Assembly (NCBI GenBank): GCA_035358035.1
Contig: DAOPOS010000011.1
Span: 1,477-65,476 of the forward strand
From: Syntrophales bacterium
GTDB lineage: Bacteria > Desulfobacterota > Syntrophia > Syntrophales > UBA2251
Direction: 5' to 3'
Length of the DNA: 64,000 nt
In this document: positions 11,605 through 60,990 of the stretch, one piece after another
How the letters are laid out: every line of letters begins with the position of its first letter
How positions within the stretch are numbered: the stretch's first letter is position 1
The notes under the pieces: generated by a model
The model's database searches: none
What the model saw: the letters and a program-made list of their open reading frames with translations, nothing else
What the model was told of the DNA's origin: nothing
Translations under genes and position numbers: made by a program

Positions 11605-11621
11605 AGAGGGGACCTCTCGAC

Positions 11622-13486: not shown

Positions 13487-13670
13487 TCCGTCCCGGCCGG
13501 AAACGGAACGGGGGCGGGGATGAGCCGGCTCCCGCCGGGAAGCCGGGTTTCAAGGGGTCCGACGGACCCGGAGATGAGGATTGGCAGGAATCACGCTTTC
13601 GCAAAAGCGGGAAAAGGAAGAGGCATCCCCAAGAATGTTGAAGAGGAAAGATCATTATCAGGAGGTGGCT

Positions 13671-14687
<1,017 letters not shown>

Positions 14688-14691
14688 CGCC

Positions 14692-15168: not shown

Positions 15169-15215
15169 GCGTTGGACGGCGGACAATTCATTTTCACGGG
15201 AGGCGGTTGTTTCAC

Positions 15216-17852
<2,637 letters not shown>

Positions 17853-23424: not shown

Positions 23425-23489
23425 ACACTCTTCCTCCTTGAAAAAATGAATTAAATGTTCGAATCGTCGCGGTGTCCGGACGATCCGTC

Positions 23490-24557
23490 TTATCCGTCGT
23501 ATTTGATGTTCCGCTGGTCCATCAGATGCCAGAAATTCTGAAGATCGTTGAAGTCCAGCACGGTGGACATGGCCCGGTTTTCCGTCATCAGCCCGTCTTC
23601 GTGGGCGCAGGCGACGGGGTTCAGGCCGCCGACCAGGATGATGCCGACCTTGTTGGCATCGACGGGCGTCTGGCCCACGGGCTCGCCCATCTCCCCGAGG
23701 GACAAATCGCCCCGAATCCCCGCCCGCTTGAGTTTCAGGAGGAGATCCTCGGCCAGCGCCCGGCTGAGCGCGGGAATCTCCCGGAAGTTGGCCAGGATCT
23801 TTCCCTCGCCCGTCTCGATGACCCGCTTGACGGAGGTCATCCGGCCCAGGATGAAAACCTCCGAGGGATCGAGGGACGAACCGGAGTAGTAGATCAGCTC
23901 CACGAACCGCATGACCTGGCCATTCTTGACCTGGAGGATGCCCCCGAACTTGGAGTCCATCGGGATGCCGCTTTTCAAAAGCACGCCGTTGACGACGATG
24001 CTGCAGACCGTCGCGAACCCGATGCGGTCCGCAGGGACCCGCACCTCGCCCAGCCGCTGCCCCTCGTCGGCGACGGCCACGAGGTCGCTGACCGCGAGGC
24101 CGCGTCTGAAAGCCGGCGCCATGGCGGCCAGGGCCGTATCGAACTGGGACCGGGGGAAAAAGGAGACATTGACGGGCAGGACGCCGTTCATGGTCTGGGG
24201 GTTGAACGTCGTCCGGTAGGCCAGTGATTCGATCCGGGAGATGGCCAGACCGATCTTGTCCCGGACGCGGGCATCGGCCGTTTCATCGACGCCCATCTCC
24301 GTGATGAGCCGCCCGTCGCGCCGCCCGACAAGGCGGGTGAGGCCCCGTTCATCCATGAGTTTAAGGTGATACCGGACGGCCCGCTCGCTCAGCAGAACGC
24401 CGAAATCCTGCATGCGCCGCGCAATGAGACGGGCCCCCATCGGGTCCGGAGACTCCTTGAGAATGCGGAGGATGAGGAGGATCTTGCGCTCGACGTCTTC
24501 GCTGTTCGATAATGGGTTCATCGGCAAACGGCAATGTTTTGCCGTATTCCCTAACAT
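23490..24557 (-). CDS. nrpR: NrpR-type nitrogen regulator (winged HTH + DUF128 domains)
   Basis: [50 protein letters not shown] resembles methanogen NrpR. Start is either ATG 24557 or ATG 24521. Confidence 0.7.
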
Positions 24558-38300: not shown

Positions 38301-38497
38301 TGCGAAAAGCGGTACTGACCGGGACCCTCCTGGCGCAGCACGCCCTCGCCGACGCCGTTGGCGAGCAGGGAAAGGATTTCGGAAGGTTTCTTGTCCGAAA
38401 AGAGATCCATCAGCCAGTCGATCGAAAAGGTCTCCTGAAAAAGCGCGGCCGTGGCCAACAAGCGCTGGTAATCGTTCTGCACGGGATCGGTTTCCAC
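35375..38497 (-). CDS. sigma-54-dependent transcriptional activator with long TPR-like N-terminal region, GAF domain, AAA+ domain and Fis-type HTH
   Basis: GETGVGKE Walker A; ELFGHEKGSFTGA (GAFTGA-type loop); C-terminal AAELLDIPPSTLAFRMNKLG. GTG start after AAGGAG. Confidence 0.85.
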   Translation of the reverse strand: METDPVQNDYQRLLATAALFQETFSIDWLMDLFSDKKPSEILSLLANGVGEGVLRQEGPGQYRFSHPRKKDDWKQRLSEQEETIAHGFIADTLMRQLPDDDQKAHALAHHLIHIVNDTERCQYLTAAGDLHRNAFRAEDALQCYTKVLDDLATRYGEDEDRLFARTAIQYSKVSTARHDTAHVLSILQAALERAEKRNLKDTQAILKMHMAKNEWLRSRYDSAMQWFDQGWALAKELNEPRLMRSAMNFSTFFLYWQGRFKDAIQIYEQSVSDIENYPRESFNLLANITIGYCYAQIGQVTQGLGMLDAIRNHCLERGDLYLACHTAGNIGNILLDIGRREDALSFLETSGREAKKSHNDWVGMSININLSYLYYLRGETKPAVRHLRDFLQQSKKVQATVYLYPYLLELCLAMKTGKLPQIDGLSLEKEVNVLIKGKNIFLKGVAYRFLALVRKMDGAPPKEIIPILNHAVRWLDEAGHQIELSKTRLELARQYLASGEEGKAQELMQITSKILATFNEEMVPDDLRVLIKNRPVGESLLKEIIKLGHEVVTIRDNKDLIQHIITTLNRITGAERGAIFLFEDGRSPRKLLLRASKNLTQEQISHESFASSMKMIDDVAATGQGRIFESDLENQALSAGEIIRSRICVPMILRDKTVGVLYHDNRLLSSAFKESDLDLISYFAAWAAFALDNVSAYEEIRRLNRKLSEENLYYKEEHLKNLHFEDIVGESSGIKHVLSQVEQVAQTDATVMIVGETGVGKELVARAIHRHSARRDKPFIRVHCSALPESLIPSELFGHEKGSFTGAMRRRLGRFELADGGTLFLDEIGDISPDIQVRLLRVLQTKEFERVGGSETLRSDFRLIVATNRNLEGLVKAQTFRSDLYYRLAVFPVYVPPLRERKEDIPRLAYYFLRIYSQKRGKEFSRITEAEMEKLIQYDWPGNVRELENIIERGTILSSGPIFKVPELGAMQHPETGPRKGVVTLRDNERRHILWALEKTGWKVRGKGGAAELLDIPPSTLAFRMNKLGVKRTPAGPVQP

Positions 38498-46474: not shown

Positions 46475-46490
46475 TGGCACCCATTTTGCT
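46475..46490 (+). promoter_or_regulatory. sigma-54 promoter, consensus TGGCAC-N5-TTGCT
   Basis: Exact match to TGGCAC-N5-TTGCW, 58 nt upstream of the SDR gene's GTG. Confidence 0.8.
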
Positions 46491-46547: not shown

Positions 46548-47312
46548 GTGGATACATCCTATCTGTCACTGCAGGGAAAAGTCGCCGTCGTCACCGGAGG
46601 GAGCCGGGGCATCGGCCGGGCCGTGGCGTTGGCGCTCGCCGATGCCGGGGCCGATGTCGTCGTCGGCAGCCGCAAGCTGGCCGATCTTGAAAAGGTCGCC
46701 GAGGAGATCAGGGCCATGGGGCGAAAGGCCCTGGCGGTGGCAATGCACAACCGCGAGGTCGAAAGCATCAGGAATTTCGTCGATACCGTCGTGAAGGAAT
46801 TCGGTCGCATCGACATCCTCGTGAACAATGCGGCCACCAATCCCGGCATGGGGCTGCTCGTCGACATGGACGAGAAGATGTACGACCAGATCATGATCAC
46901 CAACCTCAAGGGCTATACCATCCTGAGCCAGCTCGTGGGAAAGGTCATGCAGCAGCAGAAGAGCGGCAATATCGTCAACATCTCCTCCGTCGGCGGCGTG
47001 AGCCCCGATATCGGACTGGGGTTGTACTGCATCAGCAAGGCCGGGATCGGCATGCTGACCCGGGCGATGGCCAAGGAACTGGGTGATTTCGGCGTCCGCG
47101 TCAACTGCATCGCTCCCGGCGTGGTCCGGACGAAGTTCAGCCAGGCCCTGTGGAGCAATGAGCCGATGATGAAGCAGGAACTCGCCCACACGCCGATCAA
47201 ACGCATCGCCGAGCCGGAAGAGATCGGGCGGATCGCCCTGTTCCTGGCGTCGGACGCCTCGGCCTACATGACGGGGCAGATCCTGGTCGTCGACGGCGGC
47301 GGATCGATCTGA
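46548..47312 (+). CDS. short-chain dehydrogenase/reductase (FabG-like)
   Basis: GTG 46548 after AAAGGAG. TGGSRGIG, NNAA and YCISKAG (YxxxK) motifs. Confidence 0.85.
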   Translation: MDTSYLSLQGKVAVVTGGSRGIGRAVALALADAGADVVVGSRKLADLEKVAEEIRAMGRKALAVAMHNREVESIRNFVDTVVKEFGRIDILVNNAATNPGMGLLVDMDEKMYDQIMITNLKGYTILSQLVGKVMQQQKSGNIVNISSVGGVSPDIGLGLYCISKAGIGMLTRAMAKELGDFGVRVNCIAPGVVRTKFSQALWSNEPMMKQELAHTPIKRIAEPEEIGRIALFLASDASAYMTGQILVVDGGGSI

Positions 47313-47370: not shown

Positions 47371-48813
47371 ATGGGTTTAATGACCGCACAGGAGTACAAG
47401 GACAGTTTGAATGACGGGCGCATCGTCTACTACAAGGGACGAAAGATCGACAACGTCGCCACGGATCCGGATTTGAAGGCCTGCGTCGAGACCCTCGCCG
47501 TCGACTACGAAATGGCCCACGATCCTCAGTACAAGGAGCTTGCCCTCGTGTACGACGAGCAGCTGGGCGAGAATATCAGCCGCTATTACCACACGCCGCA
47601 GAACGGGCAGGACCTCCTCAAGCAGCTCGAGCTCATCATCAAGGCCACGGAACTCGGCGATGGCTATATCCCCCTGGCCCACGACATCGGCGCGGACGCC
47701 CTGAATGCGATCGCCATCACGGCGCGGTCGATGAAGGACGCCGGCAAGGTCTATCTGGAGCGCATCGAGAACTTCCGCACGTACCTGAAAAAGACGGACA
47801 AGTGCATCGTCGCGGGCGTGACGGACGTCAAGGGCGATCGGAGCCTGCGGCCTTCCGATCCGAAACAGAATCACCCCGATTTCAACGTCCGGATCGTGGA
47901 GCGGAACGACCAGGGCATCATCGTGCGCGGCGCCAAGGTCCATATCACCGGGGCGGCCTATGCCCACGAATTCTTCGTCATCCCCTGCCGGGCCATGACG
48001 GATGCGGATTCGGATTACGCCGTGGCCTTCGCCATCCAGGCGAACGCCAAGGGGATCCGGCAGATCGTTCGCCCTTTCCACGGACGGATCAGCGATATGG
48101 AGTTTCCGGTCAAGCGGGAGCTGCGCCGGATGCACACCGATTCTCTCATCATCTTCGACGATGTCTTCGTCCCCTGGGACCGGGTCTTCCTGTGCGGCGA
48201 GGTGAAGTTCGCCGCCTCCATCGTCTACAACTTCGCCCTGATGCACCGCCGCACGGGCTGCGCCTACCGCATTCCCCTGAGCGAGCAGCTCCTGGGGGCC
48301 GCCGTGGCGATCGCCGACTACAACGGCGTGGCCGATGCTCCGCACGTCAAGGAAAAGATCACGGAGTGCGTCATCTATCTGGAAACCCTTTCTGCCCTGT
48401 CCCGGTCCGCCTGTCTCGACTTCGTGGACCATGCGGGCATTCCGGTGCCCAATCCCATGACCACGAACATCGCGAAGTACCACTTCGCCCACAATTATCA
48501 CAAGATCGTCGAGATCGTTCAGGACCTGGCGGGCGGACTCCTCGTCACCGCCCCGACGTATCAGGACTGGTGCAATCCCGAGACGCACGGCGACATCGAC
48601 AAGTACCTGGGTGGAAAGGCCGGCCTGCCGACGGAAACGCGTCTGCGCATGTTCGACCTCATCCGCCGGATGACCTCGGCGGACCTGGAGACGATCTGTC
48701 TCCACGGGGAGGGTTCGCCCTACGCCGAGCGGATGACGATCCTGATGGAGGCCCGCGGGCTCATCAAGAAGTGCAAGCAGATCGTCGAGGAACTGGCCGC
48801 GATCAAGAAGTGA
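47371..48813 (+). CDS. 4-hydroxybutyryl-CoA dehydratase / HpaB-family flavoprotein homologue, apparently lacking the N-terminal Fe-S cysteines
   Basis: The C-terminal half (ADYNG, HVKEKI, LAGGLLVT, RLRMF, HGEGSPYAERMTI) resembles AbfD. The region aligned to the AbfD CxxxC reads GDGYIPLAHDIGADALNA. Confidence 0.65.
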   Translation: MGLMTAQEYKDSLNDGRIVYYKGRKIDNVATDPDLKACVETLAVDYEMAHDPQYKELALVYDEQLGENISRYYHTPQNGQDLLKQLELIIKATELGDGYIPLAHDIGADALNAIAITARSMKDAGKVYLERIENFRTYLKKTDKCIVAGVTDVKGDRSLRPSDPKQNHPDFNVRIVERNDQGIIVRGAKVHITGAAYAHEFFVIPCRAMTDADSDYAVAFAIQANAKGIRQIVRPFHGRISDMEFPVKRELRRMHTDSLIIFDDVFVPWDRVFLCGEVKFAASIVYNFALMHRRTGCAYRIPLSEQLLGAAVAIADYNGVADAPHVKEKITECVIYLETLSALSRSACLDFVDHAGIPVPNPMTTNIAKYHFAHNYHKIVEIVQDLAGGLLVTAPTYQDWCNPETHGDIDKYLGGKAGLPTETRLRMFDLIRRMTSADLETICLHGEGSPYAERMTILMEARGLIKKCKQIVEELAAIKK

Positions 48814-48976: not shown

Positions 48977-50443
48977 ATGATCGGTATCACATCTTTTGGG
49001 GGGTACATCCCCCGTTTGCGATTGAGCCGGAAGCTGATTGCCCAGAACGTGGCGTGGTACTCGCCGGTCATCTGGGGCGCGGCCCAGGGGGAGAAGGCCG
49101 TGGCGAACTGGGATGAAGACGCCCTGAGCATGGCCGTGGCGGCCGCGCAGGACTGCCTGCTGGGACGGGACAGAACGCAGGTTGACGGCGTCTATGCCGC
49201 CTCGACGACCTTCCCGTTTACGGACCGTCTCAACGCCGATATTCTGGCGACGGCCCTGAACCTGAACGAGGACGGGACGGCCTGTGCGGATTTCACGGGC
49301 TGTCTGAAGGCCGGAACGACGGCCGTCATCTCGGCCCTGGAGGCGATTCAGGCCGGCGGAAAGACGCGCGTCCTCGTGGCGGCGGGCGACCAGCGGCGGA
49401 CGAAGATGGCGACCAACTTCGAAATGTTCCTGGGGGATGGGGCGGCCGCCCTGCTGCTGGGCAGCCAGGAGGTGATTGCCGAATTCAAGGGCGGCTATTC
49501 CCTCAGCTGCGATTTCATCGATCATTATCGCGGCGCCGGCAAGGAGTTCGACTACGCGTGGGAGGAGCGCTGGGTCCGGGATGAGGGATACGGCAAGATC
49601 ATCCCCCGGGCCATCGCCGGCTTCCTCAAGAAAACGGGCCTGACCATCGGCGAGTTCGACAAGGTCGTCTATCCCTGCTACTTCAGCGCCACCCACAGGG
49701 GGATCGCCAAGAAGCTCGGGCTCGATCCGGCGAAGGTGCAGAGCAACCTTCACGAGGTCTGCGGAGACACGGGCGCGGCGCACCCGCTGGTCATGTTCGT
49801 GGCGGCCCTGGAAGACGCCAGGCCCGGCGACAAGATCCTCCTCGTGGGGTTCGGCCAGGGCTGCGACGTCCTGTATTTCCAGATCACGGACGCGATGTCG
49901 GAGTATCGCGGCGGTCAGGGCGTCAAGGGCTCGCTCGCGAAGCGGGCGGAATTGACGAGTTATACGAAATTCATGAAGTTCCGGGATATCGTCACCGCGG
50001 ATCTGGGCATTCGCGGCGAGGCCAATCCGAATTCGTCGCTCAACATCCTGTGGCGGAACCGCAAGAAGCTCATCGGCCTGGTCGGCAGCCGCTGCAAAAA
50101 ATGCGGAACGCCCCAATACACCTTTACACCCGTCTGCGTGAATCCGGACTGCAACGCCGTCGGCGATATGGAAGACTACGCGTTCTCCGGTCAGAAGGGG
50201 ACGGTCTTCATGTATACGGGCGACATGCTGGCCGCTTCGGTCGATCCGCCGGCGATCTACGGGATCGTGAACATCGAGGGCGGGGGCCGGCTGCTGGCCG
50301 ATTTCACGGACTGCACGCTGGAGGATATCAAGGTGGGGCTTCCCGTCCAGATGTCGTTCCGCCGGAGGTCGAAGGACCCCGTGCGCGGGTTCAGCGGCTA
50401 TTTCTGGAAAGTCGTCCCGCAGGCGACCGAGAAGGGGGTGTAA
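48977..50443 (+). CDS. HMG-CoA synthase-like condensing enzyme fused to a DUF35 zinc-ribbon/OB-fold domain
   Basis: ATG 48977 after GAGGAGG. DEDALSMAV and FTGCLKAGT (Glu and Cys motifs). C-terminal CKKCGTPQYTFTPVCVNPDC plus an OB-fold. Confidence 0.7.
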   Translation: MIGITSFGGYIPRLRLSRKLIAQNVAWYSPVIWGAAQGEKAVANWDEDALSMAVAAAQDCLLGRDRTQVDGVYAASTTFPFTDRLNADILATALNLNEDGTACADFTGCLKAGTTAVISALEAIQAGGKTRVLVAAGDQRRTKMATNFEMFLGDGAAALLLGSQEVIAEFKGGYSLSCDFIDHYRGAGKEFDYAWEERWVRDEGYGKIIPRAIAGFLKKTGLTIGEFDKVVYPCYFSATHRGIAKKLGLDPAKVQSNLHEVCGDTGAAHPLVMFVAALEDARPGDKILLVGFGQGCDVLYFQITDAMSEYRGGQGVKGSLAKRAELTSYTKFMKFRDIVTADLGIRGEANPNSSLNILWRNRKKLIGLVGSRCKKCGTPQYTFTPVCVNPDCNAVGDMEDYAFSGQKGTVFMYTGDMLAASVDPPAIYGIVNIEGGGRLLADFTDCTLEDIKVGLPVQMSFRRRSKDPVRGFSGYFWKVVPQATEKGV

Positions 50444-50445
50444 CG

Positions 50446-51654
50446 ATGGCTACGGGAATCAGGGACAAGGTTGCCATTATTGGCATGGGATGCACCAAAT
50501 TCGGCGAACGCTGGGATTGCGGTCCGGAAGACCTGATGGTGGAGGCGTTTCAGGAATGCCTGAGCGACGCCGGGATCGGGAAGAACGAGCTCCAGGCGGC
50601 CTGGTTCGGCTCCTGCCTGGATGAGGTGAACGTCGGGAAGAGCGCGCTGCCGCCCTCCCTGGCCCTGCGCCTGCCCAACATCGGCGTGACGAGGGTGGAA
50701 AATTACTGCGCGAGCGGCACGGAGGCCTTCCGGGGCGCCGTCTACGCCGTCGCGTCGGGGGCCTATGACATCTGCCTGGCCATCGGCGCCGAGAAGCTCA
50801 AGGACATCGGGTACGCGGGGCTGCCGGAATTCTCGGCCGGGATGGGCCTGACCAACCAGCAGTGGTTCCCCAACATGACCGCGCCGGGGTGCTTTGCCAT
50901 GCTGGCCAGCGGTTACAGCGCCAAATACGGGGTGGACATGAAGGAACTGAAGCGCGCGATGGCCCACATCTCGGCGAAAAGCCACGCCAACGGTGCCCTC
51001 AATCCCAAGGCGCACCTGCGGGCGCCGGTGACGGAAGAGGTCATCCTGAAGGCCCCCATGGTGGCCTATCCCCTGGGGCTTTTCGACTGCTGCGGCGTCA
51101 GTGACGGCTCGGCCTGCGCCATTGTCGCGACGCCGGAGGTGGCCCGGCGCCTCGGGAAGAAGGATTTCGTGACGGTCAAGGCCCTGCAGATGTCGCTGAG
51201 CAACGGCGAGGAGATGTCCTACACCAACTGGGACGGCTCCGGCTTCGTCACGACGGCCAAGGCGAGCGCCGCGGCCTACCGGGAGGCCGGGATTACGAAC
51301 CCCCGGGAGGAGATCAGCATGATGGAGGTCCATGACTGCTTCTCCATTACGGAACTCGTGACCATGGAGGATCTGCACATCTCCGCGCGGGGGGAAGCGA
51401 CGAAGGACATCATGGACGGCTTCTACGACCTGAACGGCAAGGTGCCCTGCCAGGTGGACGGAGGGCTCAAGTGCTTCGGACATCCGATCGGCGCCTCGGG
51501 GCTGAGGATGATTTACGAGATGTACCTCCAGCTTCACGGCCGTGCCGGCCAGCGGCAGCTCGAGAATCCCCGATACGGTCTGACCCACAACCTGGGCGGA
51601 TTCCCGTTCATGAACGTCTGCAGCATTGCCATCGTCGGCAGGAACGAGGCCTGA
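50446..51654 (+). CDS. SCP-x/archaeal-type thiolase
   Basis: ATG 50446, 3 nt after the upstream stop. ENYCASG nucleophile motif, plus HDCFS and CFGHPIGASG. Confidence 0.8.
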   Translation: MATGIRDKVAIIGMGCTKFGERWDCGPEDLMVEAFQECLSDAGIGKNELQAAWFGSCLDEVNVGKSALPPSLALRLPNIGVTRVENYCASGTEAFRGAVYAVASGAYDICLAIGAEKLKDIGYAGLPEFSAGMGLTNQQWFPNMTAPGCFAMLASGYSAKYGVDMKELKRAMAHISAKSHANGALNPKAHLRAPVTEEVILKAPMVAYPLGLFDCCGVSDGSACAIVATPEVARRLGKKDFVTVKALQMSLSNGEEMSYTNWDGSGFVTTAKASAAAYREAGITNPREEISMMEVHDCFSITELVTMEDLHISARGEATKDIMDGFYDLNGKVPCQVDGGLKCFGHPIGASGLRMIYEMYLQLHGRAGQRQLENPRYGLTHNLGGFPFMNVCSIAIVGRNEA

Positions 51655-51748: not shown

Positions 51749-52657
51749 ATGCCGCCCTTGATTCAGACGGAATTCACCTCCGTGATGGGCATCCGCTATC
51801 CCATCATCGGGGCGCCCATGTTTCTGGTCTCCTACGAGGAGCTCGTCGTGGCCGTCTGCGAGGCCGGGGGGCTCGGCATGCTTCCCCTGCCGAATTACCG
51901 GACAGCGGAGCAGCTGCGGCGGGCCCTGGACGTCATCCGCTCCCGGACGGAGGCGCCGGTGGGTGTCAACATCCACCTCTCCGGAAAATTTCCCTGGCAG
52001 GAACAGCTCGATCTCTGTCTCGATCATGGGGTGAAGTTCTTCATTACGTCGCTCGGCGATCCCCGCCTGATCCTGGATGCCGTGCATGCGCACGGGGGAT
52101 GGGTGTTCGCCGACGTCGTCTCGCTCGCCCAGGGACTGAAGGCGAAAGCGGGCGGCGTGGACGGTCTGGTGGCGGTGGGGGCCGGCGCCGGCGGTCATGG
52201 TGGCCGGATCTCGACGCTTGTTCTCGTTCCGTACCTGAAGGAGGCGATCGGACTGCCCGTGGTCGCGGCGGGTGGCATCGCGACCGGCGCTCAGATGGCG
52301 GCGGCTCTCGCGGTCGGCGCCTGTGCGGTGATCGTGGGGACTCGGTTCATCGCCACGCCCGAATCCAGGGCCTCCGCGGCTTACAAGCAGGCGGTCATCG
52401 ACGCCGACCCGGACGGCATCGTCTGCACGGATCGAATCACGGGCAATCCGGCGAACTGGATCGCCGCGAGCATCGCGGACATGGAGGAGCGTCCGCCGCT
52501 CACCTCGAAAAAATGGCTGGATTTCTGGAGCGCGGGACAGAGCGTGGCCCAGGTGAGGAACATCCGGCCGGCGGCGGAGATCGTCGCCGAGATGGTGCGC
52601 GAGTATGGTGAGACGTGCCGACGCATGCAGGGCACGGTGGTATCGAACGGAACGTGA
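51749..52657 (+). CDS. nitronate monooxygenase / FabK-like FMN oxidoreductase
   Basis: YPIIGAPMFLVS, GGLGMLP and VVAAGGIATG motifs of the NMO/enoyl-reductase II family. Confidence 0.75.
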   Translation: MPPLIQTEFTSVMGIRYPIIGAPMFLVSYEELVVAVCEAGGLGMLPLPNYRTAEQLRRALDVIRSRTEAPVGVNIHLSGKFPWQEQLDLCLDHGVKFFITSLGDPRLILDAVHAHGGWVFADVVSLAQGLKAKAGGVDGLVAVGAGAGGHGGRISTLVLVPYLKEAIGLPVVAAGGIATGAQMAAALAVGACAVIVGTRFIATPESRASAAYKQAVIDADPDGIVCTDRITGNPANWIAASIADMEERPPLTSKKWLDFWSAGQSVAQVRNIRPAAEIVAEMVREYGETCRRMQGTVVSNGT

Positions 52658-52676: not shown

Positions 52677-53861
52677 ATGAGTAAACTGAAGGGAAAGGTC
52701 GCCATCATCGGGATCGGCGAAGTCCCCACGGGGAGATTTCCGGAGACGGCGGCCATCTATCACGCCATTGCCTCGGCCAGGCTGGCCATCCGGGATGCCG
52801 GAATCCAGAAGGACGAGATCGACTATGTCATGCCCACGGCGGCGCTGTTCAGCCCCCAGTTCAACACGGAACTCGTGACCTGTCGGGTGGCCGAGGAACT
52901 GGGGCTCAAGAACGTGAAGAAGAACTGCCAGGTGTTCGCGGGCGGTTCCAGTAGCACCTGCGCCCTGGAAATCGCCGCGAGCCTCATCAACAGCGGCGCG
53001 GCGAACATGATCCTGTTCGTCCATGCCGACCGCCTGGGGACGGGCGTCTCCGCGCAGGGCGGCATCGATCTGTTCTCCACCGCCGGGATCTCCGCGGAGT
53101 GGGAAGTGCCGTTCGGCCAGCATTACTCGGCGATCGCCGCCATGTCGACCATGCGCTACAAGTACGAGACGGGCTGTACGGACGAGCACCTCTCGGCGGT
53201 CTGCGTCTCCAACCGAAAGTGGGCGCAGCTGAACCCCAACGCGATGTTCAAGAAGGACCTGACGGTCGAGGAGATCATGGCCTCCAAGCAACTCTCCACG
53301 CCGCTGAGGGTCAAGCACTCCAACGTCCTGGCGGATGGCGGGGCGGCCTTCATCGTGACCTCGGCCGAGCGGGCGAGGGCCATCTGCGAGCGTCCCGTGT
53401 ACCTGCTGGGCGAGGGGGGCGTCGTGACCCACTTCGTCTTTTCCCAGGAACCCGATGTCAGCCGGTTCGGATGGGCCAGGGCGGGGCGGATGGCCTTCGA
53501 GGAGGCCGGGCTCACCCCCAAGGACGTCGACGTGGCGGAGATCTACGATTCCTATCCGATCTACCAGCTGATCGGCTTCGAGGAGCTCGGTTTCGCCGAG
53601 CGGGGACAGGGCGGCGAGATGTTCCTGAAGGGCGATACCTGGCCCGGCGGGAAGATTCCGACGACGACCAATGGCGGCATGCTGTCGCAGGGGCATACGG
53701 GTGCCGGCGGCGCCGTGGCCCTGATGGTCGAGACGACGCGCCAGTTGATGGGCAAGGCCGGCGTGCGGCAGGTCCAGGGGGCGCGCTTCGCGGTCGAGAC
53801 GGCCGTCGGAGGGACGTACATGGACGCCCAGGTCACCATCCTGGGAACGGAAATTCCGTAG
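52677..53861 (+). CDS. thiolase-superfamily protein lacking the catalytic cysteines (Ltp2-like?)
   Basis: ATG 52677 after GGAGGAGG. Aligned by eye to the neighbouring thiolase: NYCASG becomes FAGGSS, HDCFS becomes YDSYP, and GH is retained (SQGHTGAGG). Confidence 0.7.
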   Translation: MSKLKGKVAIIGIGEVPTGRFPETAAIYHAIASARLAIRDAGIQKDEIDYVMPTAALFSPQFNTELVTCRVAEELGLKNVKKNCQVFAGGSSSTCALEIAASLINSGAANMILFVHADRLGTGVSAQGGIDLFSTAGISAEWEVPFGQHYSAIAAMSTMRYKYETGCTDEHLSAVCVSNRKWAQLNPNAMFKKDLTVEEIMASKQLSTPLRVKHSNVLADGGAAFIVTSAERARAICERPVYLLGEGGVVTHFVFSQEPDVSRFGWARAGRMAFEEAGLTPKDVDVAEIYDSYPIYQLIGFEELGFAERGQGGEMFLKGDTWPGGKIPTTTNGGMLSQGHTGAGGAVALMVETTRQLMGKAGVRQVQGARFAVETAVGGTYMDAQVTILGTEIP

Positions 53862-53877
53862 GGAGAGGAGGTCAGTC

Positions 53878-54297
53878 ATGGATACACCCGTTAAACCCAA
53901 ACCAGTTCCGGTCGTCAATCCCTGGGCCAGGCCCTTCTGGGAGGCGGCGCGGGAAAACAAGCTGATCATCCAGCAATGCAAGGATTGCGGCACCTACATC
54001 TTCTACCCGCGGATCGCCTGCACGAACTGCTTTTCGGACAACGTGGCCTGGGTGCCGGCGTCGGGCCGGGGGAAGGTCTATACGTACACGGTCGTCGAGA
54101 GCTATCCGCCCTCGGCCTTCATTCCCGATCTGCCCTTTGTGGTCGCCGTGGTCCGCCTGGAGGAAGGGGTGCAGATGCTGAGCAACATCGTCGGCTGCGA
54201 TCCGCACAGCGTCTATTGCGAAATGCCGGTGACGGTCGTTTTCGAGAAATTGAACGAGGAATTCACCCTGCCGAAGTTCAAGCCGGTGGAAGCGTAA
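53878..54297 (+). CDS. DUF35 zinc-ribbon/OB-fold protein
   Basis: CKDCGTYIFYPRIACTNC four-Cys ribbon, followed by GKVYTYTVV OB-fold; 139 aa. Confidence 0.8.
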   Translation: MDTPVKPKPVPVVNPWARPFWEAARENKLIIQQCKDCGTYIFYPRIACTNCFSDNVAWVPASGRGKVYTYTVVESYPPSAFIPDLPFVVAVVRLEEGVQMLSNIVGCDPHSVYCEMPVTVVFEKLNEEFTLPKFKPVEA

Positions 54298-54341
54298 GGT
54301 TCCGCGGCTCGGACGGGGCGGTTGGATCAAGGAGGTGGATC

Positions 54342-54791
54342 ATGTCGCAGAAGTGCTGGGAAGATTTCGATATCGGCTTCAATTTCCGGACGCCGTCCAT
54401 CACGGTGACGGAGACGCATGTGGTGAACTGGGCGGGCTTGACCATGGATTTTTACCCCCTCCACATGGACGCGGAGTATTGCGCAAAGACGGTCTTCAAG
54501 GAGCGGATCGCCCACGGGCCGCTCATCTTCGGGATGGCCGTCGGCATGGCGGGCCTGGCGAAGGTGGAGGGCGGGTCGATCCTCGCCTGGATGGGCGTGG
54601 ATCAGATGCGCATGAAGGCCCCGGTCAAGTTCGGGGACACGATTACGGTCCATATCGAAACGGTGGAGAAGAAGGAGACGAGCAAGCCCTCGCAGGGATT
54701 GCAGACCTGGCGTTATACGGTGAAGAACCAGCGCGACGAGGCCGTCATGGTTTTCGACATGAAGTTTCTGATGCGCCGGAAAGGCGCCTGA
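54342..54791 (+). CDS. MaoC-like (R-specific) enoyl-CoA hydratase
   Basis: ATG 54342 after GGAGGTGG. Hot-dog fold motifs DFYPLHMD and IAHGPLIF. Confidence 0.8.
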   Translation: MSQKCWEDFDIGFNFRTPSITVTETHVVNWAGLTMDFYPLHMDAEYCAKTVFKERIAHGPLIFGMAVGMAGLAKVEGGSILAWMGVDQMRMKAPVKFGDTITVHIETVEKKETSKPSQGLQTWRYTVKNQRDEAVMVFDMKFLMRRKGA

Positions 54792-54857: not shown

Positions 54858-56015
54858 GTGGATTTCAATTTCAGCGAGAAGCAGAATGCGTTGCGGGAGA
54901 AGGTGCGGGGATATACCGAGGCCAACATTTCCCGGGCCGTGGTTCGTGAAATCGAGGAGAGGGACGAGTTCCCCCACGATCTCGTGGAAAAATTCTGCGA
55001 ACTGGGGCTGGCCAGGATCAATATCCCCGAGGCCTACGGAGGCCTGAACGGCGACATCGTGGACTTGATGATCGTCTTCGAGGAGATCGCCAAGCGGTCC
55101 CCCGTCCTGTGCTGGAACCTCGGCAACATCCTCCTGTACGGCAACGAGATCATCGGCGTGAACGGCAACCGGGCCCAGAAGGACGAATATCTCCCGAAAC
55201 TGGCCCGGGGCGAGATCATGTTCAGCTTCGCCATTACGGAGCCCAACGCCGGTTCGGATGCCGCCAGCATCAAGACGCGGGCGCTGGAGGCGGTTCCGAA
55301 GGACGGGTCCTACGTGATCAACGGCGGCAAGATGTTCATCACCGGGGCGGGTGTGACGCAGTACACGGTGACGTTCGCCCGGACCGCCGAATCGAAATAC
55401 GGCGGCATCACGTCCTTCGTCGTCGACACGTCCCTGGCGGGTTACAGCGCGAAGCCGATCAAGAAGCTCGGCTTCCACGGGTCGAATACCTGCGAGGTGG
55501 TCTACGACAACGTCCGGGTGCCCCCGCAATCCATTCTCGGCGGGGAGGAAAAGGGGCTCAACAACGGCTGGAAGCAGGAGATGAAGCTCTTGAACCAGGA
55601 GCGGCTCGTCCTGTCGTCCATGACGCTGGGCATGGCGCAGTCCTCCTTCGACGAGGCCCTGCAGTTTGCCCGGGAGAAGATGCAGCGGACCGATCCGGGC
55701 ACGGACGTGCAGTCGATCCAGCACGACATCGCCGAGATGGCTTCGGAGCTGGAGGCCATGAAGGTCCTGGCCTACAGCGCGGCCTGGAAGGAGGCGCAGG
55801 GGTTGAACCCGGTCCGGGAAACCTCCATGACCAAGTACTTCTGCGCCGAGACGGCCAAGCAGATCATCCTGAAAGGGATGAACGTCCTGGGCGAGAGCGC
55901 CTCCTCCATGGACTACGAGATGCAGAGAAACCTCCGGGAGATTCTCATCTTCTCCATCGGTGGAGGGACGTCGCAAATCCAGAAGAACATCATCTGCAAG
56001 ACCTTTGGACTTTGA
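54858..56015 (+). CDS. acyl-CoA dehydrogenase
   Basis: GTG 54858 after GGAAGGAG. FNFSEKQNALREKV and ITEPNAGSD motifs; C-terminal IGGGTSQIQKNII. Confidence 0.85.
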   Translation: MDFNFSEKQNALREKVRGYTEANISRAVVREIEERDEFPHDLVEKFCELGLARINIPEAYGGLNGDIVDLMIVFEEIAKRSPVLCWNLGNILLYGNEIIGVNGNRAQKDEYLPKLARGEIMFSFAITEPNAGSDAASIKTRALEAVPKDGSYVINGGKMFITGAGVTQYTVTFARTAESKYGGITSFVVDTSLAGYSAKPIKKLGFHGSNTCEVVYDNVRVPPQSILGGEEKGLNNGWKQEMKLLNQERLVLSSMTLGMAQSSFDEALQFAREKMQRTDPGTDVQSIQHDIAEMASELEAMKVLAYSAAWKEAQGLNPVRETSMTKYFCAETAKQIILKGMNVLGESASSMDYEMQRNLREILIFSIGGGTSQIQKNIICKTFGL

Positions 56016-56085: not shown

Positions 56086-58095
56086 ATGGGGCGGATTTTT
56101 ACGTGCAGCAACGAGGACGGCATCGCCGTGGTCCGGTTCGACGTGCCCGGCGAGGCGATGAACACCTGGACGGAGGAGGCCATCGCGGATTTTGCCGTTC
56201 TGCTCGAAACCCTGGAGAAGGAAAAGTCGGCCTATCGGGGTGTGATCTTCATCTCCGGCAAAAGCACGAATTTTCATGCCGGGGCGAATCTGAACATGCT
56301 GGGGGCGGAGAAGGACCTGGCGGACTTCCGGAAGGGGTGCGACGCGTTCAACGGGCTCTTCATCCGGCTGGAAAACCTCGGCATCCCCACCGTGGCCGCC
56401 ATCCATGGCCCCTGCATGGGCGGGGGGTATGAATTCGCCCTGACCATGACGGCGCGGATCGCGACCGACAGCAGGCGGACGACGATCGGCCTGCCCGAGT
56501 GCAACGTGGGCGTTATCCCCGGCGCCGGCGGCACCCAGCGTCTCCCCCGGCTCATCGGCTATCCGGCCCTGGATTTCATCCCCCGCGGCGCCGTTCTGCC
56601 CGCGGCCAAGGCCCTGGAGGTCGGCATGGTCGACCGGGTGATCCCGGAGGGGGACGACCTGCTGGCCAAGGCGAAAGGCCTGCTCGTGGAGATCATCGCC
56701 GGGACGGCCGGGCTGAAGCGTGAGAAGCCGGACCTGTCCGCACTCGACGCGACGCTCGAGGCGGCGAAAAAGAACGTGCTCAAGGCGACGCGGGGACGGG
56801 CGATACCGGCGCCGATGCTGGCGCTCAAGGCGATGAGCGAGGGACTCAAGGTGCCGATCGAGCAGGGCTTGAAGATCGAAACGGACTGTTTCATCGAGGC
56901 GCTCAAGGCCCCGGAATGCAAGGGGACGATCAACACCTTCTTCCTGAAGACCCTCTCCGACAAGCCTCAGGCCATGATTCCCAGGGGATTCGAGCCCAAG
57001 CCCATCCGGACATTCGGCGTCCTCGGCTTCGGCACGATGGGGCGCGGGATCGTCATCAACATCCTGACCCGGACAAAGCTGCCCGTCGTCGTCAAGGACG
57101 TCTCCGAAGCCCTGGAGCCGGGCATGGGCTTCATCCGGAAGATTCTGGAAGGCATGGCGGCCAAGAACCGCCTGAAGGAGCCCGTCGAGAACCTGCTCGC
57201 CCGGGTCAAGCCGGTGGCGGACTGGACAGACGACTTTACGGACGTCGATTGCGTCATCGAGGCCGTCTTCGAAGATCCCGCCGTCAAGGACCAGGTCTAC
57301 CGGGAGCTGTGCCAGACCGTCGCGGACGACTGCCTCCTGGCGACGAATACCTCGAGCCTGCCCGTGGACAAACTGGCGAAGAGCGTCTCGAACCCGGAGC
57401 GGTTCGTGGGGGCCCATTTCTTCTCCCCCGTCTGGATGATGCAGCTTCTGGAGATCATCCGGGGCCAGGCCACGAGCGACGCCACGACGAACAACATGCT
57501 GGCCGTCTGCGCCGCCCTCGGCAAGCGCCCGGTCGTCTGCAAGGACAACCCCGGGTTCGTGGTCAACGCCATGCTCTTCCCGTATTTCATCAAGGCCTTC
57601 GATCTCCTCGCGGAAGGCGTGCCCATGGACAGGATCGACGCGGCCATGATGAAGTTCGGCCTGCCCGTGGGGCCCATCCGCCTGACCGACGAGGTCGGGA
57701 TCGACGTCTCCTATCTCGTCCTGACGAAGTCCCTCGGGATGACGCCGCCGGTGGCCCTCGAGAACGTCTACCAGGCGGGTCGCTACGGCCGAAACAAGAA
57801 CGGCAAGGGATTCTACGCGGCGGACGGGTCGCCCGATCCCGAGGTCCTGCCCCTGATCAATCCGGACAACAGGCAGAAGGACTATTCCGTGACCGAGCTG
57901 CAGAACATGCTCTTCACCCCCTTCGTCCAGACGGGTCACGACCTGCTTGGGAAGGGGGTCGTCAGCGATCCGCGGTCGATCGACATCGGCGCGATCTGGG
58001 GGGTCGGTTTCCCGGCCGACAAGGGCGGTCCGATGAAATGGGGCGACCTGATCGGATTGAGCGAGAAGCTCTACGGCAAGAAATTCTACGCATAA
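56086..58095 (+). CDS. bifunctional enoyl-CoA hydratase / 3-hydroxyacyl-CoA dehydrogenase (FadB/PimF-like)
   Basis: Crotonase AIHGPCMGGGYEFAL; NAD-binding VLGFGTMGRGI; HFFSPV motif. Confidence 0.85.
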   Translation: MGRIFTCSNEDGIAVVRFDVPGEAMNTWTEEAIADFAVLLETLEKEKSAYRGVIFISGKSTNFHAGANLNMLGAEKDLADFRKGCDAFNGLFIRLENLGIPTVAAIHGPCMGGGYEFALTMTARIATDSRRTTIGLPECNVGVIPGAGGTQRLPRLIGYPALDFIPRGAVLPAAKALEVGMVDRVIPEGDDLLAKAKGLLVEIIAGTAGLKREKPDLSALDATLEAAKKNVLKATRGRAIPAPMLALKAMSEGLKVPIEQGLKIETDCFIEALKAPECKGTINTFFLKTLSDKPQAMIPRGFEPKPIRTFGVLGFGTMGRGIVINILTRTKLPVVVKDVSEALEPGMGFIRKILEGMAAKNRLKEPVENLLARVKPVADWTDDFTDVDCVIEAVFEDPAVKDQVYRELCQTVADDCLLATNTSSLPVDKLAKSVSNPERFVGAHFFSPVWMMQLLEIIRGQATSDATTNNMLAVCAALGKRPVVCKDNPGFVVNAMLFPYFIKAFDLLAEGVPMDRIDAAMMKFGLPVGPIRLTDEVGIDVSYLVLTKSLGMTPPVALENVYQAGRYGRNKNGKGFYAADGSPDPEVLPLINPDNRQKDYSVTELQNMLFTPFVQTGHDLLGKGVVSDPRSIDIGAIWGVGFPADKGGPMKWGDLIGLSEKLYGKKFYA

Positions 58096-58177: not shown

Positions 58178-59761
58178 ATGGCAACACTGTTTCACGGCAT
58201 CACCTGCGCGGACCTGTATGACCGTTCGGTGGCGGCTTTTCGTTCCCGCACCGCCATTCTCTTCAACGACGAGACGTACACCTACGACGCGCTGCAGAAG
58301 AACGCCTATTCCCTGGCCCATGCCCTCGACAAGCTGGGGCTCAAGAAGGGCGATCGGGTCGCGTTCCTGATGGCCAACTGTCCGGAATACATCTTCTGCG
58401 AGTATGCGCTGGGAAAGCTCGGGCTGGTCCGTGTTCCCCTGGCCGTTTTGCTCAGCTCCAAGGATCACATCTACATGATGAATCAGTCCGAGTGCAAGGC
58501 CCTGATCTACCATGAACGAATGGCCGGTCGGGTTCAGGAGATGATCCCCTCGCTCGAGACGGTCAAGCAGTTCATCTGCGTGACCCAGGATCCGGCGAGC
58601 GTGATGTCCGGGCACGAGCACCTGCAGTCCCTGATCGCGGCGAACCCGCCGGAAGCGCCCCGGGTCGCGCTTGAATGCACGGACCTGGTCGCGATCTATT
58701 ACACCGGTGGCACCACCGGCCTTCCCAAGGGCGTGATGATGGACCACAACACCTGGGTGGGCACGTTTATCAGCGAGATGCTCCACCTGGGGCTGGATTG
58801 GGACGAGGTCTTCGCCTTCGCCACGCCGCTGACCCATGCGGGGGGGTGCCTGATCCTGCCAATCCTGCTGAAACGCGGGACCTGCGAGATCCAGGATCAT
58901 TTCGACCCGAAGCTCTTTCTGGAGCGGGTGGAGAAGGTCAAGGTCACGACGACCTTCATCGTGCCCACGATGATCTACGTCCTGCTCGATTATCCGGACC
59001 TCAAGAAGTACGACCTCGCCAGCCTGCGCAACATCATCTACGGCGCGTCCGCCATCGCTCCGGCGCGCCTGAAGCAGGCGGTGGACACGCTGGGGCCGAT
59101 CTTCACCCAGCTCTTCGGGCAGACGGAGTCTCCCATGATGATCAGCGCCCTGTCCCGTCAGGAGCACGTCATCGACGATCCGGAGCGGCAGATGAAGGTC
59201 TACACGTCCTGCGGGCGCCCGGTCATGACGGCCGACGTCCGCATCGTGGACGAGAACGGCAAGGAGCTGCCCCGGGGCGAGGCGGGGGATATCGTCTGCC
59301 GGACGATCAACATGATGACGGGCTACCTCAAGAATCCGGAACAGACGGCGGAGACGATCCGGGACGGCTGGCTGTGGACCGGGGACGTGGGAAAGTTCGA
59401 CGAGGAGGGGTACCTCTACATCGTGGACCGTTCCAAGGATATGATCATCAGCGGCGGGTTCAACATCTTCCCCCGGGAGATCGAGGATGTCCTCCATGAG
59501 CACCCCGCGGTGAAAAACGTGGCCGTGGTGGGCGTGCCTCACGAGAAGTGGGGCGAGGAAGTCACGGCGGTGGTGTCGCTGCATGCGGGCAAGACCGCGA
59601 GCGAAAAGGAACTCGTCCAGTTCGTCAAGGAGCGCAAGGGAAGCCTCCTGGCCCCGAAGAGCGTCAAGTTCTGGGAGGAGATTCCCCTGACGAACCTCGG
59701 CAAGCTGGACAAGAAGAAGATCCGGGAAATGTTCTGGAAGGGGATGGACCGCAAGGTGTGA
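58178..59761 (+). CDS. AMP-forming acyl-CoA ligase
   Basis: YTGGTTGLPKGV and GWLWTGDVGKFDEEGYLYIVDRSKDMI motifs. Confidence 0.85.
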   Translation: MATLFHGITCADLYDRSVAAFRSRTAILFNDETYTYDALQKNAYSLAHALDKLGLKKGDRVAFLMANCPEYIFCEYALGKLGLVRVPLAVLLSSKDHIYMMNQSECKALIYHERMAGRVQEMIPSLETVKQFICVTQDPASVMSGHEHLQSLIAANPPEAPRVALECTDLVAIYYTGGTTGLPKGVMMDHNTWVGTFISEMLHLGLDWDEVFAFATPLTHAGGCLILPILLKRGTCEIQDHFDPKLFLERVEKVKVTTTFIVPTMIYVLLDYPDLKKYDLASLRNIIYGASAIAPARLKQAVDTLGPIFTQLFGQTESPMMISALSRQEHVIDDPERQMKVYTSCGRPVMTADVRIVDENGKELPRGEAGDIVCRTINMMTGYLKNPEQTAETIRDGWLWTGDVGKFDEEGYLYIVDRSKDMIISGGFNIFPREIEDVLHEHPAVKNVAVVGVPHEKWGEEVTAVVSLHAGKTASEKELVQFVKERKGSLLAPKSVKFWEEIPLTNLGKLDKKKIREMFWKGMDRKV

Positions 59762-59847: not shown

Positions 59848-60990
59848 ATGGATTTCGCACTGACGGAAGAACAACGGTCTATCAGGGATACCATCCGGAA
59901 GTTTGTGGCGAAGGAGTGCGAGCGCGAGGCCATCAAGCGGCTGGACGAGGAGGGGGCCTTCCCCGCGGAACTCTTCCGCAAGGTGGCGGACATCGGCCTT
60001 TGCGCCCTGACGATCCCCGAGGTCGACGGGGGCGCCGGTCCCAACGCGCTCGGTGCGGTGATCGTGACCGCCGAACTCGCGTCGATCCACCCGCCCCTGG
60101 CGGGAACCTTCGCCACTCAAAGTCTCTGCGGCGGAAAGGCGCTGGCCGACCTGGGGACGGAGGCGCAGCGGGAGCGCCATCTTCCAGGCGTCATCGACGG
60201 GTCGTCGCTCGTGACCCTCGCGCTGCTCGAGCCCGATCAGGGCTATGACCAGAGCGTCAGCCGGACGACGGCCCGGCGGGAAGGGGAGCGTGTGGTCCTG
60301 AACGGGACGAAGACGTTCGTGCGTCTGGCCGACCGGGCGGCCCTGATCCTCGTCCGGGCGTCCCTGGAGGACGCTGACGGGACCCCCGCCTTCTTCATCG
60401 TCGCCGCGGAAACCCCCGGAATCGGGATCCGCGCGCTAGAGACGGTCGGATTTCACGGGATGAGCCTGTGCGAGGTGGGACTGGACGCCGTCGCCGTTGG
60501 CGCGGAAGATAGGCTGGGGGGAGACGCCGATGCCCCGGCGGAGCGCAGGAAACTCGACCGGGTCATGGGCGCCGAGCATCTGGCCGTGGCGGCCTGCGGC
60601 ATGGGCATCGCCCGGGGCGCCTACGCGTACGCGCTCCAGTATGCCCGGGAGCGCGTGCAGTTCGGCCGGCCGATCATCCAGTTCGGAGCGATCCGGGAGA
60701 TGCTGGTGGAGATGGCACTGCAGGCGCGGGTGGCCGAACTGCTCACCTGCCAGGCGGCATCGCTCGTCGACCGGGGGCAGGAATGCCTGCCGGAGATCAT
60801 CCAGGCGCGCCTTGCCGCGGCGGAGGCGGCGCGCAAGACGTCCCTGCACGGCGTCCAGATTTTCGGCGGCTACGGTTACGCCATGGAATACGACGCCCAG
60901 CGCTATCTCCGGGATGCCATGGTCCTGCTCAGCGGCGGGGGCACCCGTCAGGTGCTGGGCCAGGCGCTGGGAGTGCTCTGGGGATATTGA
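59848..60990 (+). CDS. acyl-CoA dehydrogenase
   Basis: MDFALTEEQRSIRDTIRKF and YAQRYLRDAMV-type C-terminus. Confidence 0.85.
   Translation: MDFALTEEQRSIRDTIRKFVAKECEREAIKRLDEEGAFPAELFRKVADIGLCALTIPEVDGGAGPNALGAVIVTAELASIHPPLAGTFATQSLCGGKALADLGTEAQRERHLPGVIDGSSLVTLALLEPDQGYDQSVSRTTARREGERVVLNGTKTFVRLADRAALILVRASLEDADGTPAFFIVAAETPGIGIRALETVGFHGMSLCEVGLDAVAVGAEDRLGGDADAPAERRKLDRVMGAEHLAVAACGMGIARGAYAYALQYARERVQFGRPIIQFGAIREMLVEMALQARVAELLTCQAASLVDRGQECLPEIIQARLAAAEAARKTSLHGVQIFGGYGYAMEYDAQRYLRDAMVLLSGGGTRQVLGQALGVLWGY

Follow-up and report, generated by a model that had tools for sequence, protein, structure and literature searches.

A conserved gene triplet in a Syntrophales operon, predicted to encode a cysteine-less thiolase-fold aldolase, a DUF35 partner and a MaoC hydratase

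A 64,000-nucleotide stretch from a Syntrophales bacterium (assembly GCA_035358035.1, contig DAOPOS010000011.1, positions 1,477 to 65,476; hereafter the window) carries three adjacent genes whose products resemble the parts of the thiolase-fold aldolases known from steroid side-chain degradation. The first encodes a thiolase-fold protein without the catalytic cysteines (TLP, 394 amino acids; positions 52677-53861), the second a stand-alone DUF35 protein (139 amino acids; 53878-54297), and the third a MaoC-type (R)-specific enoyl-CoA hydratase consisting of a single canonical hot-dog (149 amino acids; 54342-54791), all on the plus strand. Judged by sequence, the triplet would be a conserved and uncharacterised variant of the known modules of thiolase-fold aldolase, DUF35 protein and hydratase, one that differs from them in its active-site residues, lies in a non-steroid setting and is distributed across phyla. 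With modest confidence, we favor the reading that TLP and the DUF35 protein act together as a thiolase-fold beta-hydroxyacyl-CoA retro-aldolase, directly after the adjacent MaoC hydratase. This assignment of function is drawn from homology and synteny.

Studies of two steroid-degrading systems provide the framework for reading the TLP active site. Both Ltp2 and Sal have Gly at the position of the thiolase nucleophile. In TcLtp2 the base is Tyr294 (of a Y-D-H-F motif) and the acid is Tyr344, His296 contributing to the oxyanion hole, while CtSal uses Tyr302 as base together with Cys304 of Y-D-C-Y, and has Gln352 at the position of Tyr344. The CtSal variants C304A, C304S and C304H are inactive, with no detectable activity in the case of C304S (PMC12329534).

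TLP was aligned by HMMER to five solved relatives (4U4E, CtSal 9MYR, the archaeal-type thiolase 7YVY, 4YZO and TcLtp2 6OK1) and, separately, by MAFFT within a set of 122 sequences. In every one of these alignments Gly90 of TLP (in FAGGSS) lies opposite the nucleophilic Cys of the thiolases, Y290-D291-S292-Y293-P294 stands in place of the SCP2-type HDCFS motif, and G339-H340 corresponds to the retained thiolase GH, so that both the nucleophilic Cys and HDCF are missing (Gly90, YDSY) and GH is present. The original prediction, made by eye, had proposed just this state of the three motifs, and it was borne out at each of them, with no alignment placing a Cys at the nucleophile position. That prediction also likened TLP to Ltp2 in its use of tyrosines, and here only half of the likeness survives: Tyr290 aligns with the catalytic base of both proven aldolases (TcLtp2 Tyr294 and CtSal Tyr302), while Tyr344 of Ltp2 is replaced by His340 and His296 by Ser292. 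In addition, the H149-Y150-S151 loop of TLP aligns with the region that supplies the oxyanion-hole Gln161 in Sal.

Conservation was measured over 165 unique orthologues, drawn from 120 database proteins and 52 genomic loci and all at least 68% identical. The invariant residues include G89-G90, Y290-D-S-Y-P294, G339-H340, E141-W-E143, H149-Y150-S151 and R160-Y161, and none of the 165 has a Cys at position 90. At 132 of the 394 positions conservation is at least 99%. Because these positions include those of the active site, and because the orthologues span several phyla, strong selection on a working TLP active site is implied. Thiolysis by the normal mechanism, on the other hand, is excluded by the invariance of G89-G90 and the lack of Cys throughout the set.

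The second protein is a recognizable DUF35 family member, with both Pfam domains above cutoff (zf-ChsH2, 7.5e-17; OB_ChsH2_C, 1.2e-21). It consists of a C4 zinc ribbon (C34/C37/C48/C51) and an OB fold, and the four Cys residues are invariant among 52 orthologues. Its two best solved relatives are the DUF35 domains of ChsH2 (6OK1_B, 82 bits) and Shy (9MYR_B, 77 bits), as compared to 61 bits for the archaeal thiolase/HMG-CoA synthase (HMGCS) DUF35 protein and 34 bits for BbsA, which bears out its likeness to the partners of aldolases. The protein is a candidate structural partner of TLP. The MaoC hydratase (Pfam MaoC_dehydratas, 3e-19) has as its PDB neighbors 1Q6W (88 bits), 4FFU, the MaoC domain of PaaZ (62 bits) and PhaJ, and its Asp/His dyad (D36 and H41, in MDFYPLH) and H58-G59 are invariant among 52 orthologues. 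The presence of a four-Cys DUF35 protein and a MaoC hydratase next to TLP, as first proposed, is thus upheld by Pfam and by the ribbon residues, and the two genes always adjoin it. The proposed spacings of 17 and 45 nucleotides were each one too large: the order of the triplet is right, and the actual gaps are 16 nucleotides (TLP to DUF35) and 44 nucleotides (DUF35 to MaoC). A strong Shine-Dalgarno sequence precedes each of the three open reading frames (ORFs).

How widespread is this arrangement? The host is a Syntrophales metagenome-assembled genome (MAG) from anaerobic digesters, and a protein identical to TLP occurs on anaerobic-digester metagenome contigs. The nearest genomes by TLP identity are a Syntrophales MAG (98%) and then a Smithellaceae MAG (93%). 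Orthologues with 68-93% identity are found in Syntrophales, Desulfobacterales, Desulfomonile and Desulfatiglandales; in Hyphomonadaceae/Terricaulis, Rhodospirillales, Rhodoferax, Burkholderiales and Zoogloeaceae/Rhodocyclaceae; and in Steroidobacteraceae, Pseudomonadales and Acidimicrobiaceae MAGs. Those in aerobic or facultative Alpha-, Beta- and Gammaproteobacteria and in Acidimicrobiia are 70-76% identical, and the triplet is therefore not specific to anaerobes. The suggestion that it belongs to an anaerobe is correct for the host, a digester Syntrophales, and too narrow for the module.

Synteny was followed by searching all fetched loci with the operon proteins of the window (tblastn). The order TLP-DUF35-MaoC is kept in every locus with a long enough contig (about 50 species-level genomes), the DUF35 gene lying directly downstream of TLP wherever the contig permits. 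After the triplet there is almost always an orthologous acyl-CoA ligase gene (50-83% identity), with an acyl-CoA dehydrogenase (ACAD) alongside. Considering this synteny together with the invariance of the motif residues in the 165 orthologues, the arrangement is not due to chance. A search of PLSDB plasmids (tblastn) found no TLP orthologue with more than 47% identity, and thus no annotated catabolic plasmid that might hint at the substrate. One copy, on a 3.3-kb contig binned as a Methanotrichaceae archaeon (L022, JAFGNK010000076.1), has TLP-DUF35-MaoC-ACAD with 63-82% identity to the Syntrophales genes; it most probably reflects misbinning of DNA from a syntrophic consortium, not a copy that belongs to the archaeon.

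A broader set of features shared by the aldolase systems, namely Gly at the nucleophile position, Tyr at the position of the HDCF His, an adjacent DUF35 gene and an adjacent enoyl-CoA hydratase gene, is found complete and conserved here. Beyond these, the comparison with each known system is mixed. The steroid C3 side-chain system of actinobacteria, TcLtp2-ChsH2 (6OK1), shares with the triplet the Gly, the Tyr that starts Y-D-x-[FY], a DUF35 partner and a MaoC-family hydratase, encoded next door, for the preceding step. It differs in the two active-site replacements given above (the motif being YDSY in TLP), in belonging to another clade, and in a score against TLP of only 120 bits. Moreover, ChsH1/ChsH2 is a heteromeric hydratase in which ChsH2 carries the DUF35 domain as its C-terminus, whereas the Syntrophales MaoC is a single hot-dog with its own Asp/His dyad and its DUF35 protein is free; the Syntrophales locus also lacks steroid gene context. 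The Ltp2-ChsH2 architecture first assigned to the locus therefore does not hold, given the free DUF35 protein, the single hot-dog and the position of TLP outside the Ltp2 clade. The three-part logic of hydratase, DUF35 protein and thiolase-like protein does stand, in that all parts are adjacent and conserved, in a form that is neither Ltp2 nor Sal.

CtSal-CtShy (9MYR), from the degradation of the bile-acid C5 side-chain in proteobacteria, likewise has Gly at the nucleophile position, Y-D-x-Y with a catalytic Tyr, a DUF35 partner and a homomeric MaoC hydratase of the PaaZ/PhaJ type. By score CtSal is the closer of the two characterized aldolases to TLP (151 bits). It differs in that the essential Cys304 is replaced by Ser292 and Gln352 by His340, in its clade, and in that the Shy DUF35 domain is part of the hydratase polypeptide and carries a C3H1 zinc site, while the Syntrophales DUF35 protein is free and has a C4 site. 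The best solved relative of TLP, at 190 bits, is the uncharacterized 'thiolase' 4U4E, whose active site is in the same state as that of TLP (GGSS, Y-D-S-F and the retained His). Since 4U4E falls in a different clade and has no function on record, it serves as a template for the fold and not for functional transfer.

A thiolase-like/DUF35 retro-aldolase outside steroid metabolism already has a precedent, supported by genetics and biochemistry. In ibuprofen catabolism by Sphingomonadaceae, the thiolase-like/DUF35 retro-aldolase IpfDE releases propionyl-CoA from the dihydrodiol of ibuprofen-CoA (PMC9195938). IpfD-IpfE can be likened to TLP-DUF35 by description rather than by sequence, and differs from it in being aerobic and plasmid-borne and in acting on a ring dihydrodiol made by a dioxygenase instead of a hydratase product. 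More distant likenesses are provided by BbsAB, the archaeal thiolase/HMGCS/DUF35 system and PhlACB, which share the Thiolase_C_1 subfamily fold (Pfam, 3e-51 for TLP) and a DUF35 zinc-ribbon/OB partner. These systems, however, keep the nucleophilic Cys and HDCF and proceed through an acyl-enzyme intermediate, which is impossible for TLP. A genuine Cys-thiolase/DUF35 system of this type lies 1-3 kb upstream of TLP in the same operon. A TLP-DUF35-MaoC module was not found described in the literature searched, outside the work on steroids and ibuprofen.

The relationship of TLP to other Cys-less proteins was examined with a rough neighbor-joining tree, without support values, of 122 sequences (TLP, sequences from the PDB and 116 cluster representatives at 50% identity). 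In this tree the true thiolases (C|HDCF|H) make up a small cluster, and the Cys-less G|YDx[FY] proteins fan out into a large, diverse radiation. TLP lies in a clade of its own, clustering with three cluster representatives (P0121, P0123 and P0124) apart from the 4U4E group and outside the Sal (G|YDCY|Q) and Ltp2 (G|YD[CHA]F|Y) clades, and is therefore neither an Ltp2 nor a Sal. Of six sister-clade proteins that were looked up, five have an adjacent DUF35 gene, and the sixth (P0128) is on an uninformative 1.7-kb contig. A hydratase gene is adjacent to or near three of them, in the arrangements ACAD-MaoC-TLP-DUF35-crotonase (P0126), TLP-DUF35-crotonase (P0129) and, with the crotonase and an ACAD nearby, P0127. 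These loci suggest that the hydratase/thiolase-like/DUF35 logic is general for the Cys-less radiation. Most of the nearest 50%-identity representatives (P0121-P0270) have Gly at the nucleophile position and Y-D-x-[FY], where x is A, S, C, P, N or G. Cys-less thiolase-like proteins as a group are far more numerous than the characterized Sal, Ltp2 and SLP clades, and are routinely annotated as acetyl-CoA acetyltransferase.

In the proposed pathway, an organic acid would be imported by the Liv-type ABC uptake systems that flank the operon, converted to its CoA thioester by the conserved ligase, and oxidized to the 2-enoyl-CoA by the adjacent ACAD. The MaoC hydratase would then form the (3R)-hydroxyacyl-CoA, which TLP, presumably in complex with the DUF35 protein, would cleave at the C2-C3 bond without thiolysis, yielding acetyl-CoA (or propionyl-CoA) and an aldehyde or ketone. 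Tyr290 would take the proton from the 3-hydroxyl, as do Ltp2 Tyr294 and Sal Tyr302, and His340, the retained thiolase His, might stabilize or protonate the thioester enolate, possibly assisted by Tyr293 or the H149-Y150-S151 loop. The product of the MaoC hydratase is a plausible substrate because a competent hydratase is invariably adjacent, which points to a 3-hydroxyacyl-CoA. Thiolytic cleavage would be covered already, since separate Cys-thiolases are encoded both in the Syntrophales operon and in the aerobic versions described below. Why would a retro-aldolase be needed at all? Such a shunt would be useful if the 3-hydroxyl could not be oxidized or if the hydration were thermodynamically uphill, as might be the case for acyl chains that are beta-branched or ring-substituted. 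An unfavorable hydration is found in the Ltp2 system, where it requires the aldolase step to draw it forward (PMC11321319).

Several points weigh against the retro-aldolase reading. Both known catalytic acids are absent from TLP, with Ser292 at the position of Sal Cys304 and His340 at that of Ltp2 Tyr344, and a Ser in place of Cys304 is precisely the change that abolishes Sal activity. TLP also falls outside both clades of proven aldolases in the rough tree. The DUF35 protein is free, and so lacks the tether to the hydratase seen in ChsH2 and Shy (PMC11321319). As for the carbonyl product, neither an aldehyde dehydrogenase nor any obvious enzyme acting on ketones was recognized in the operon, and the searched literature contains no experimental datum on the TLP family. 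Finally, the AlphaFold2 model of the TLP monomer, based on a 29-sequence alignment with all members at least 76% identical, was too poor for examination of the pocket (mean predicted local distance difference test score, pLDDT, 52.5; predicted template-modeling score, pTM, 0.46).

If the known acids are gone, His340 and the GG turn are still present, and these might support some other acyl-CoA enolate chemistry with no covalent intermediate, such as the decarboxylation of malonyl-type or 2-carboxyacyl-CoAs, or an isomerization. This is the alternative that survives best, and we rate it as unlikely. The only activity on record for the Cys-less relative TbSLP (YDCF) is a weak malonyl-CoA decarboxylase, but CtSal has no such activity (PMC12329534). 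Furthermore, no gene for a carboxylase or mutase able to supply a 2-carboxyacyl-CoA was recognized in the operon, and the ever-present hydratase gene argues for a hydroxylated substrate instead.

Slightly less likely again is that TLP is a catalytically dead scaffold that organizes or stabilizes the hydratase, the DUF35 protein or a true thiolase. All of the canonical thiolase catalytic residues but one His have been lost, and inert partner subunits are known, the MaoC domain of ChsH2 being a catalytically inert partner (PMC11321319). With this model it is difficult to see how Y290-D-S-Y-P, G339-H340 and H149-Y150-S151 would remain invariant in 165 sequences from several phyla, or why the Tyr common to both active aldolases would be retained. 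The Smithellaceae operons (L006-L012) also contain the triplet without the neighboring Cys-thiolase (or its PhlA-like::DUF35 partner), which shows TLP to be independent of that thiolase and rules out a role as its mere partner.

A third alternative, that TLP is a sterol or bile-acid side-chain aldolase of digester and sediment bacteria, is improbable. Both characterized relatives act on steroids, some orthologues come from MAGs labeled Steroidobacter/Steroidobacteraceae or Rhodocyclaceae/Zoogloeaceae, and sewage digesters are rich in sterols. Nevertheless, TLP belongs to neither steroid clade, the ligase of the operon is closest to the fatty-acid ligase FadD8, and no steroid-ring domains appear in the examined flanks of two further loci (L050 and L031). 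The same is true of those genes of the window that were covered by Pfam or NCBIfam scans, which lie at about 22-64 kb (some 18 ORFs at 1-22 kb being outside the scan), and over that range the early statement that there are no other steroid genes is correct. Steroid hydratases, moreover, need a remodeled cleft and an auxiliary domain, and in ChsH2 and Shy the hydratase is fused to DUF35 (PMC11321319); neither feature is found in the Syntrophales triplet, whose 149-residue hot-dog has no room for such an addition. Least probable is that TLP remains a thiolase or acyltransferase, with Ser91 or Ser92 (both about 99% conserved, beside the Gly that replaces Cys) as its nucleophile, given that the acid/base Cys of HDCF is gone too and that Ser92 is the Ser of the thiolase C-x-S turn, a legacy of the fold that is also present in real thiolases and in the aldolase Sal.

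The triplet is part of a long sigma-54-dependent catabolic operon of a beta-oxidation-like kind, as judged from a promoter, an activator and the lack of convincing terminators within 46-62 kb. The sigma-54 (-24/-12) element, TGGCACCCATTTTGCT, at 46475-46490 on the plus strand, matches TGGCAC-N5-TTGCW perfectly, as no other site in the 64-kb window does, and lies 58 nucleotides upstream of the start of the first gene. In each of 13 related loci that share this form of the operon (L005-L016, L058), a single TGGCA[CT]-N5-TTGC[AT] site likewise lies a short distance upstream of the SDR gene. A TPR-GAF-AAA+ sigma-54 activator encoded at 35375-38497 on the minus strand (Pfam Sigma54_activat, 3.7e-69, with GAF, TPR and HTH_8) is the probable regulator of the operon.

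The genes of the operon other than the triplet, all on the plus strand, are as follows. The first encodes an SDR oxidoreductase (46548-47312; Pfam adh_short_C2, 1e-61), with the start revised to the GTG at 46548, which is preceded by a ribosome-binding site. The metagenome call of 281 amino acids from 46467 probably begins too far upstream and takes in the promoter, the Pfam match beginning only at residue 38 of the longer ORF. Next is a flavoprotein of the HpaB/AbfD family (47380-48813), with 4-hydroxybutyryl-CoA dehydratase (1U8V, 245 bits) as its top PDB match. A firm assignment as a radical 4-hydroxybutyryl-CoA dehydratase was rejected: three of the four [4Fe-4S] ligands of 1U8V (Cys99, Cys103 and Cys299) are not conserved, and the protein is therefore probably not a radical dehydratase. 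The next two genes encode a PhlA/HMG-CoA-synthase-like domain fused to its own DUF35 (48977-50443; Pfam ACP_syn_III_C, zf-ChsH2 and OB_ChsH2_C) and a genuine SCP2/archaeal-type thiolase (50446-51654). The fusion protein scores 135 bits with PhlA of the PhlACB C-acyltransferase (5M3K) as opposed to 84 bits with the archaeal HMGCS (6ESQ), its C-terminus matching the 6ESQ DUF35, and it is the likely partner of the thiolase. The latter has Cys88 (in NYCASG), HDCFS and GH, confirming the canonical thiolase noted earlier, and scores 687 bits with NCBIfam PRK06157 (cutoff 403); TLP, in comparison, falls below all NCBIfam cutoffs (top match PRK06158, 270 bits against a cutoff of 421), and is 23.6% identical to this thiolase at a distance of about 1-2 kb. 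One operon thus holds two different thiolase-superfamily/DUF35 assemblies side by side, the pair at 48977-51654 and TLP-DUF35. The former pair, missing from the Smithellaceae operons, has 36-52% identity in Desulfobacterales loci.

Immediately upstream of TLP is a gene for an NMO/FabK-like FMN oxidoreductase, a putative enoyl reductase (51749-52657; Pfam NMO, 2e-44; NCBIfam FabK, 171 bits, below cutoff), which is conserved near TLP in many loci. Downstream of the triplet are an ACAD (54858-56015; Pfam Acyl-CoA_dh N/M/C) with generic PDB matches to Bcd and short-to-medium-chain ACADs, conserved beside the triplet in most loci; a bifunctional FadJ/FadB-type enoyl-CoA hydratase/(S)-3-hydroxyacyl-CoA dehydrogenase (56086-58095, a call adopted from the identical metagenome contig; Pfam ECH_1, 3HCDH_N and 3HCDH; NCBIfam FadJ, 491 bits, below cutoff); an acyl-CoA ligase (58178-59761; Pfam AMP-binding), whose top PDB match is FadD8 of M. 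tuberculosis, a medium/long-chain ligase (358 bits); and a second ACAD (59848-60990; Pfam and NCBIfam). Elsewhere in the window, a protein with NrpR regulatory domains (PF01995) and HTH_12 is encoded on the minus strand at 22177-24557, adjoining a glutamate dehydrogenase gene. Regulators of the NrpR type are best known as archaeal nitrogen repressors, and such a protein seems unusual for a Syntrophales genome.

The operon occurs in two general forms. The Syntrophales form runs SDR, AbfD/HpaB-like, (PhlA-like::DUF35, Cys-thiolase), NMO, TLP, DUF35, MaoC, ACAD, FadJ, ligase, ACAD. The aerobic form consists of an Amino_oxidase/CrtI-like flavoprotein, TLP, DUF35, MaoC, ligase and ACAD, followed by either an APH-family kinase or a FadA-type thiolase and FadJ, with the SDR gene divergently transcribed. 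The flavoprotein precedes the module in L031, L035, L039, L040, L044-L052, L054 and L056 (at about 8300-16000 of each), and in most of these aerobic loci the module is followed by an ACAD and an APH-family kinase. It has 563 amino acids, is 74-85% conserved, and has no close solved or curated relative. Its identification as KstD was rejected, the match being confined to the FAD-binding N-terminus (41 bits against a cutoff of 789).

What substrate might such an operon serve? The small canonical MaoC hydratase and the FadD8-like ligase point away from steroids, and the substrate is probably a slim aliphatic acyl-CoA. Proteins of the family of the CrtI-like flavoprotein typically have isoprenoid chains as their substrates. 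A beta-branched or isoprenoid-derived acid, if such is the substrate, would rationalize an aldolase bypass. The aerobic set of APH kinase, ACAD, SDR and ligase is reminiscent of LvaABCDE and of the ACAD10/11 route for 4-oxo- and 4-hydroxyacyl-CoAs, and by analogy may offer a clue to the class of substrate; LvaA/LvaC and ACAD10/11, which pair an ACAD with an APH kinase, convert 4-hydroxyacyl-CoA to enoyl-CoA (PMC6692424, PMC11342911). A pathway for cyclohexaneacetate, with the orphan (1-hydroxycyclohexan-1-yl)acetyl-CoA lyase, would also fit the logic of ligase, ACAD, hydratase and lyase, but a literature search on that lyase and pathway returned nothing usable.

More broadly, and more tentatively, with the odds in our judgment lying somewhat against it, the triplet may be the founding example of a widespread and unrecognized hydratase-aldolase bypass of beta-oxidation for non-steroid acyl-CoAs (candidates being beta-branched, isoprenoid-derived and alicyclic ones), operating in strict anaerobes such as Syntrophales and Desulfobacterales as well as in aerobes. 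It would use a third catalytic type made up of Tyr, Ser and the retained thiolase His, without the Cys of Sal or the second Tyr of Ltp2.

Thiolase-fold aldolases have so far been described from the two steroid systems, Ltp2 and Sal, and, by genetic evidence, from ibuprofen degradation. If the TLP family is active, it would provide a third active-site solution on the thiolase scaffold, and the combination of TLP, DUF35, MaoC and ligase genes would become a genetic marker for a substrate that is evidently common in the environment. The routine misannotation of such proteins as acetyl-CoA acetyltransferase, which inflates the apparent thiolase content of metagenomes, would be corrected as well. 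Most generally, the hydratase-aldolase answer to blocked beta-oxidation would then be a general tool of carboxylic-acid catabolism, one that is available even to the syntrophic anaerobes that drive methanogenic digesters.

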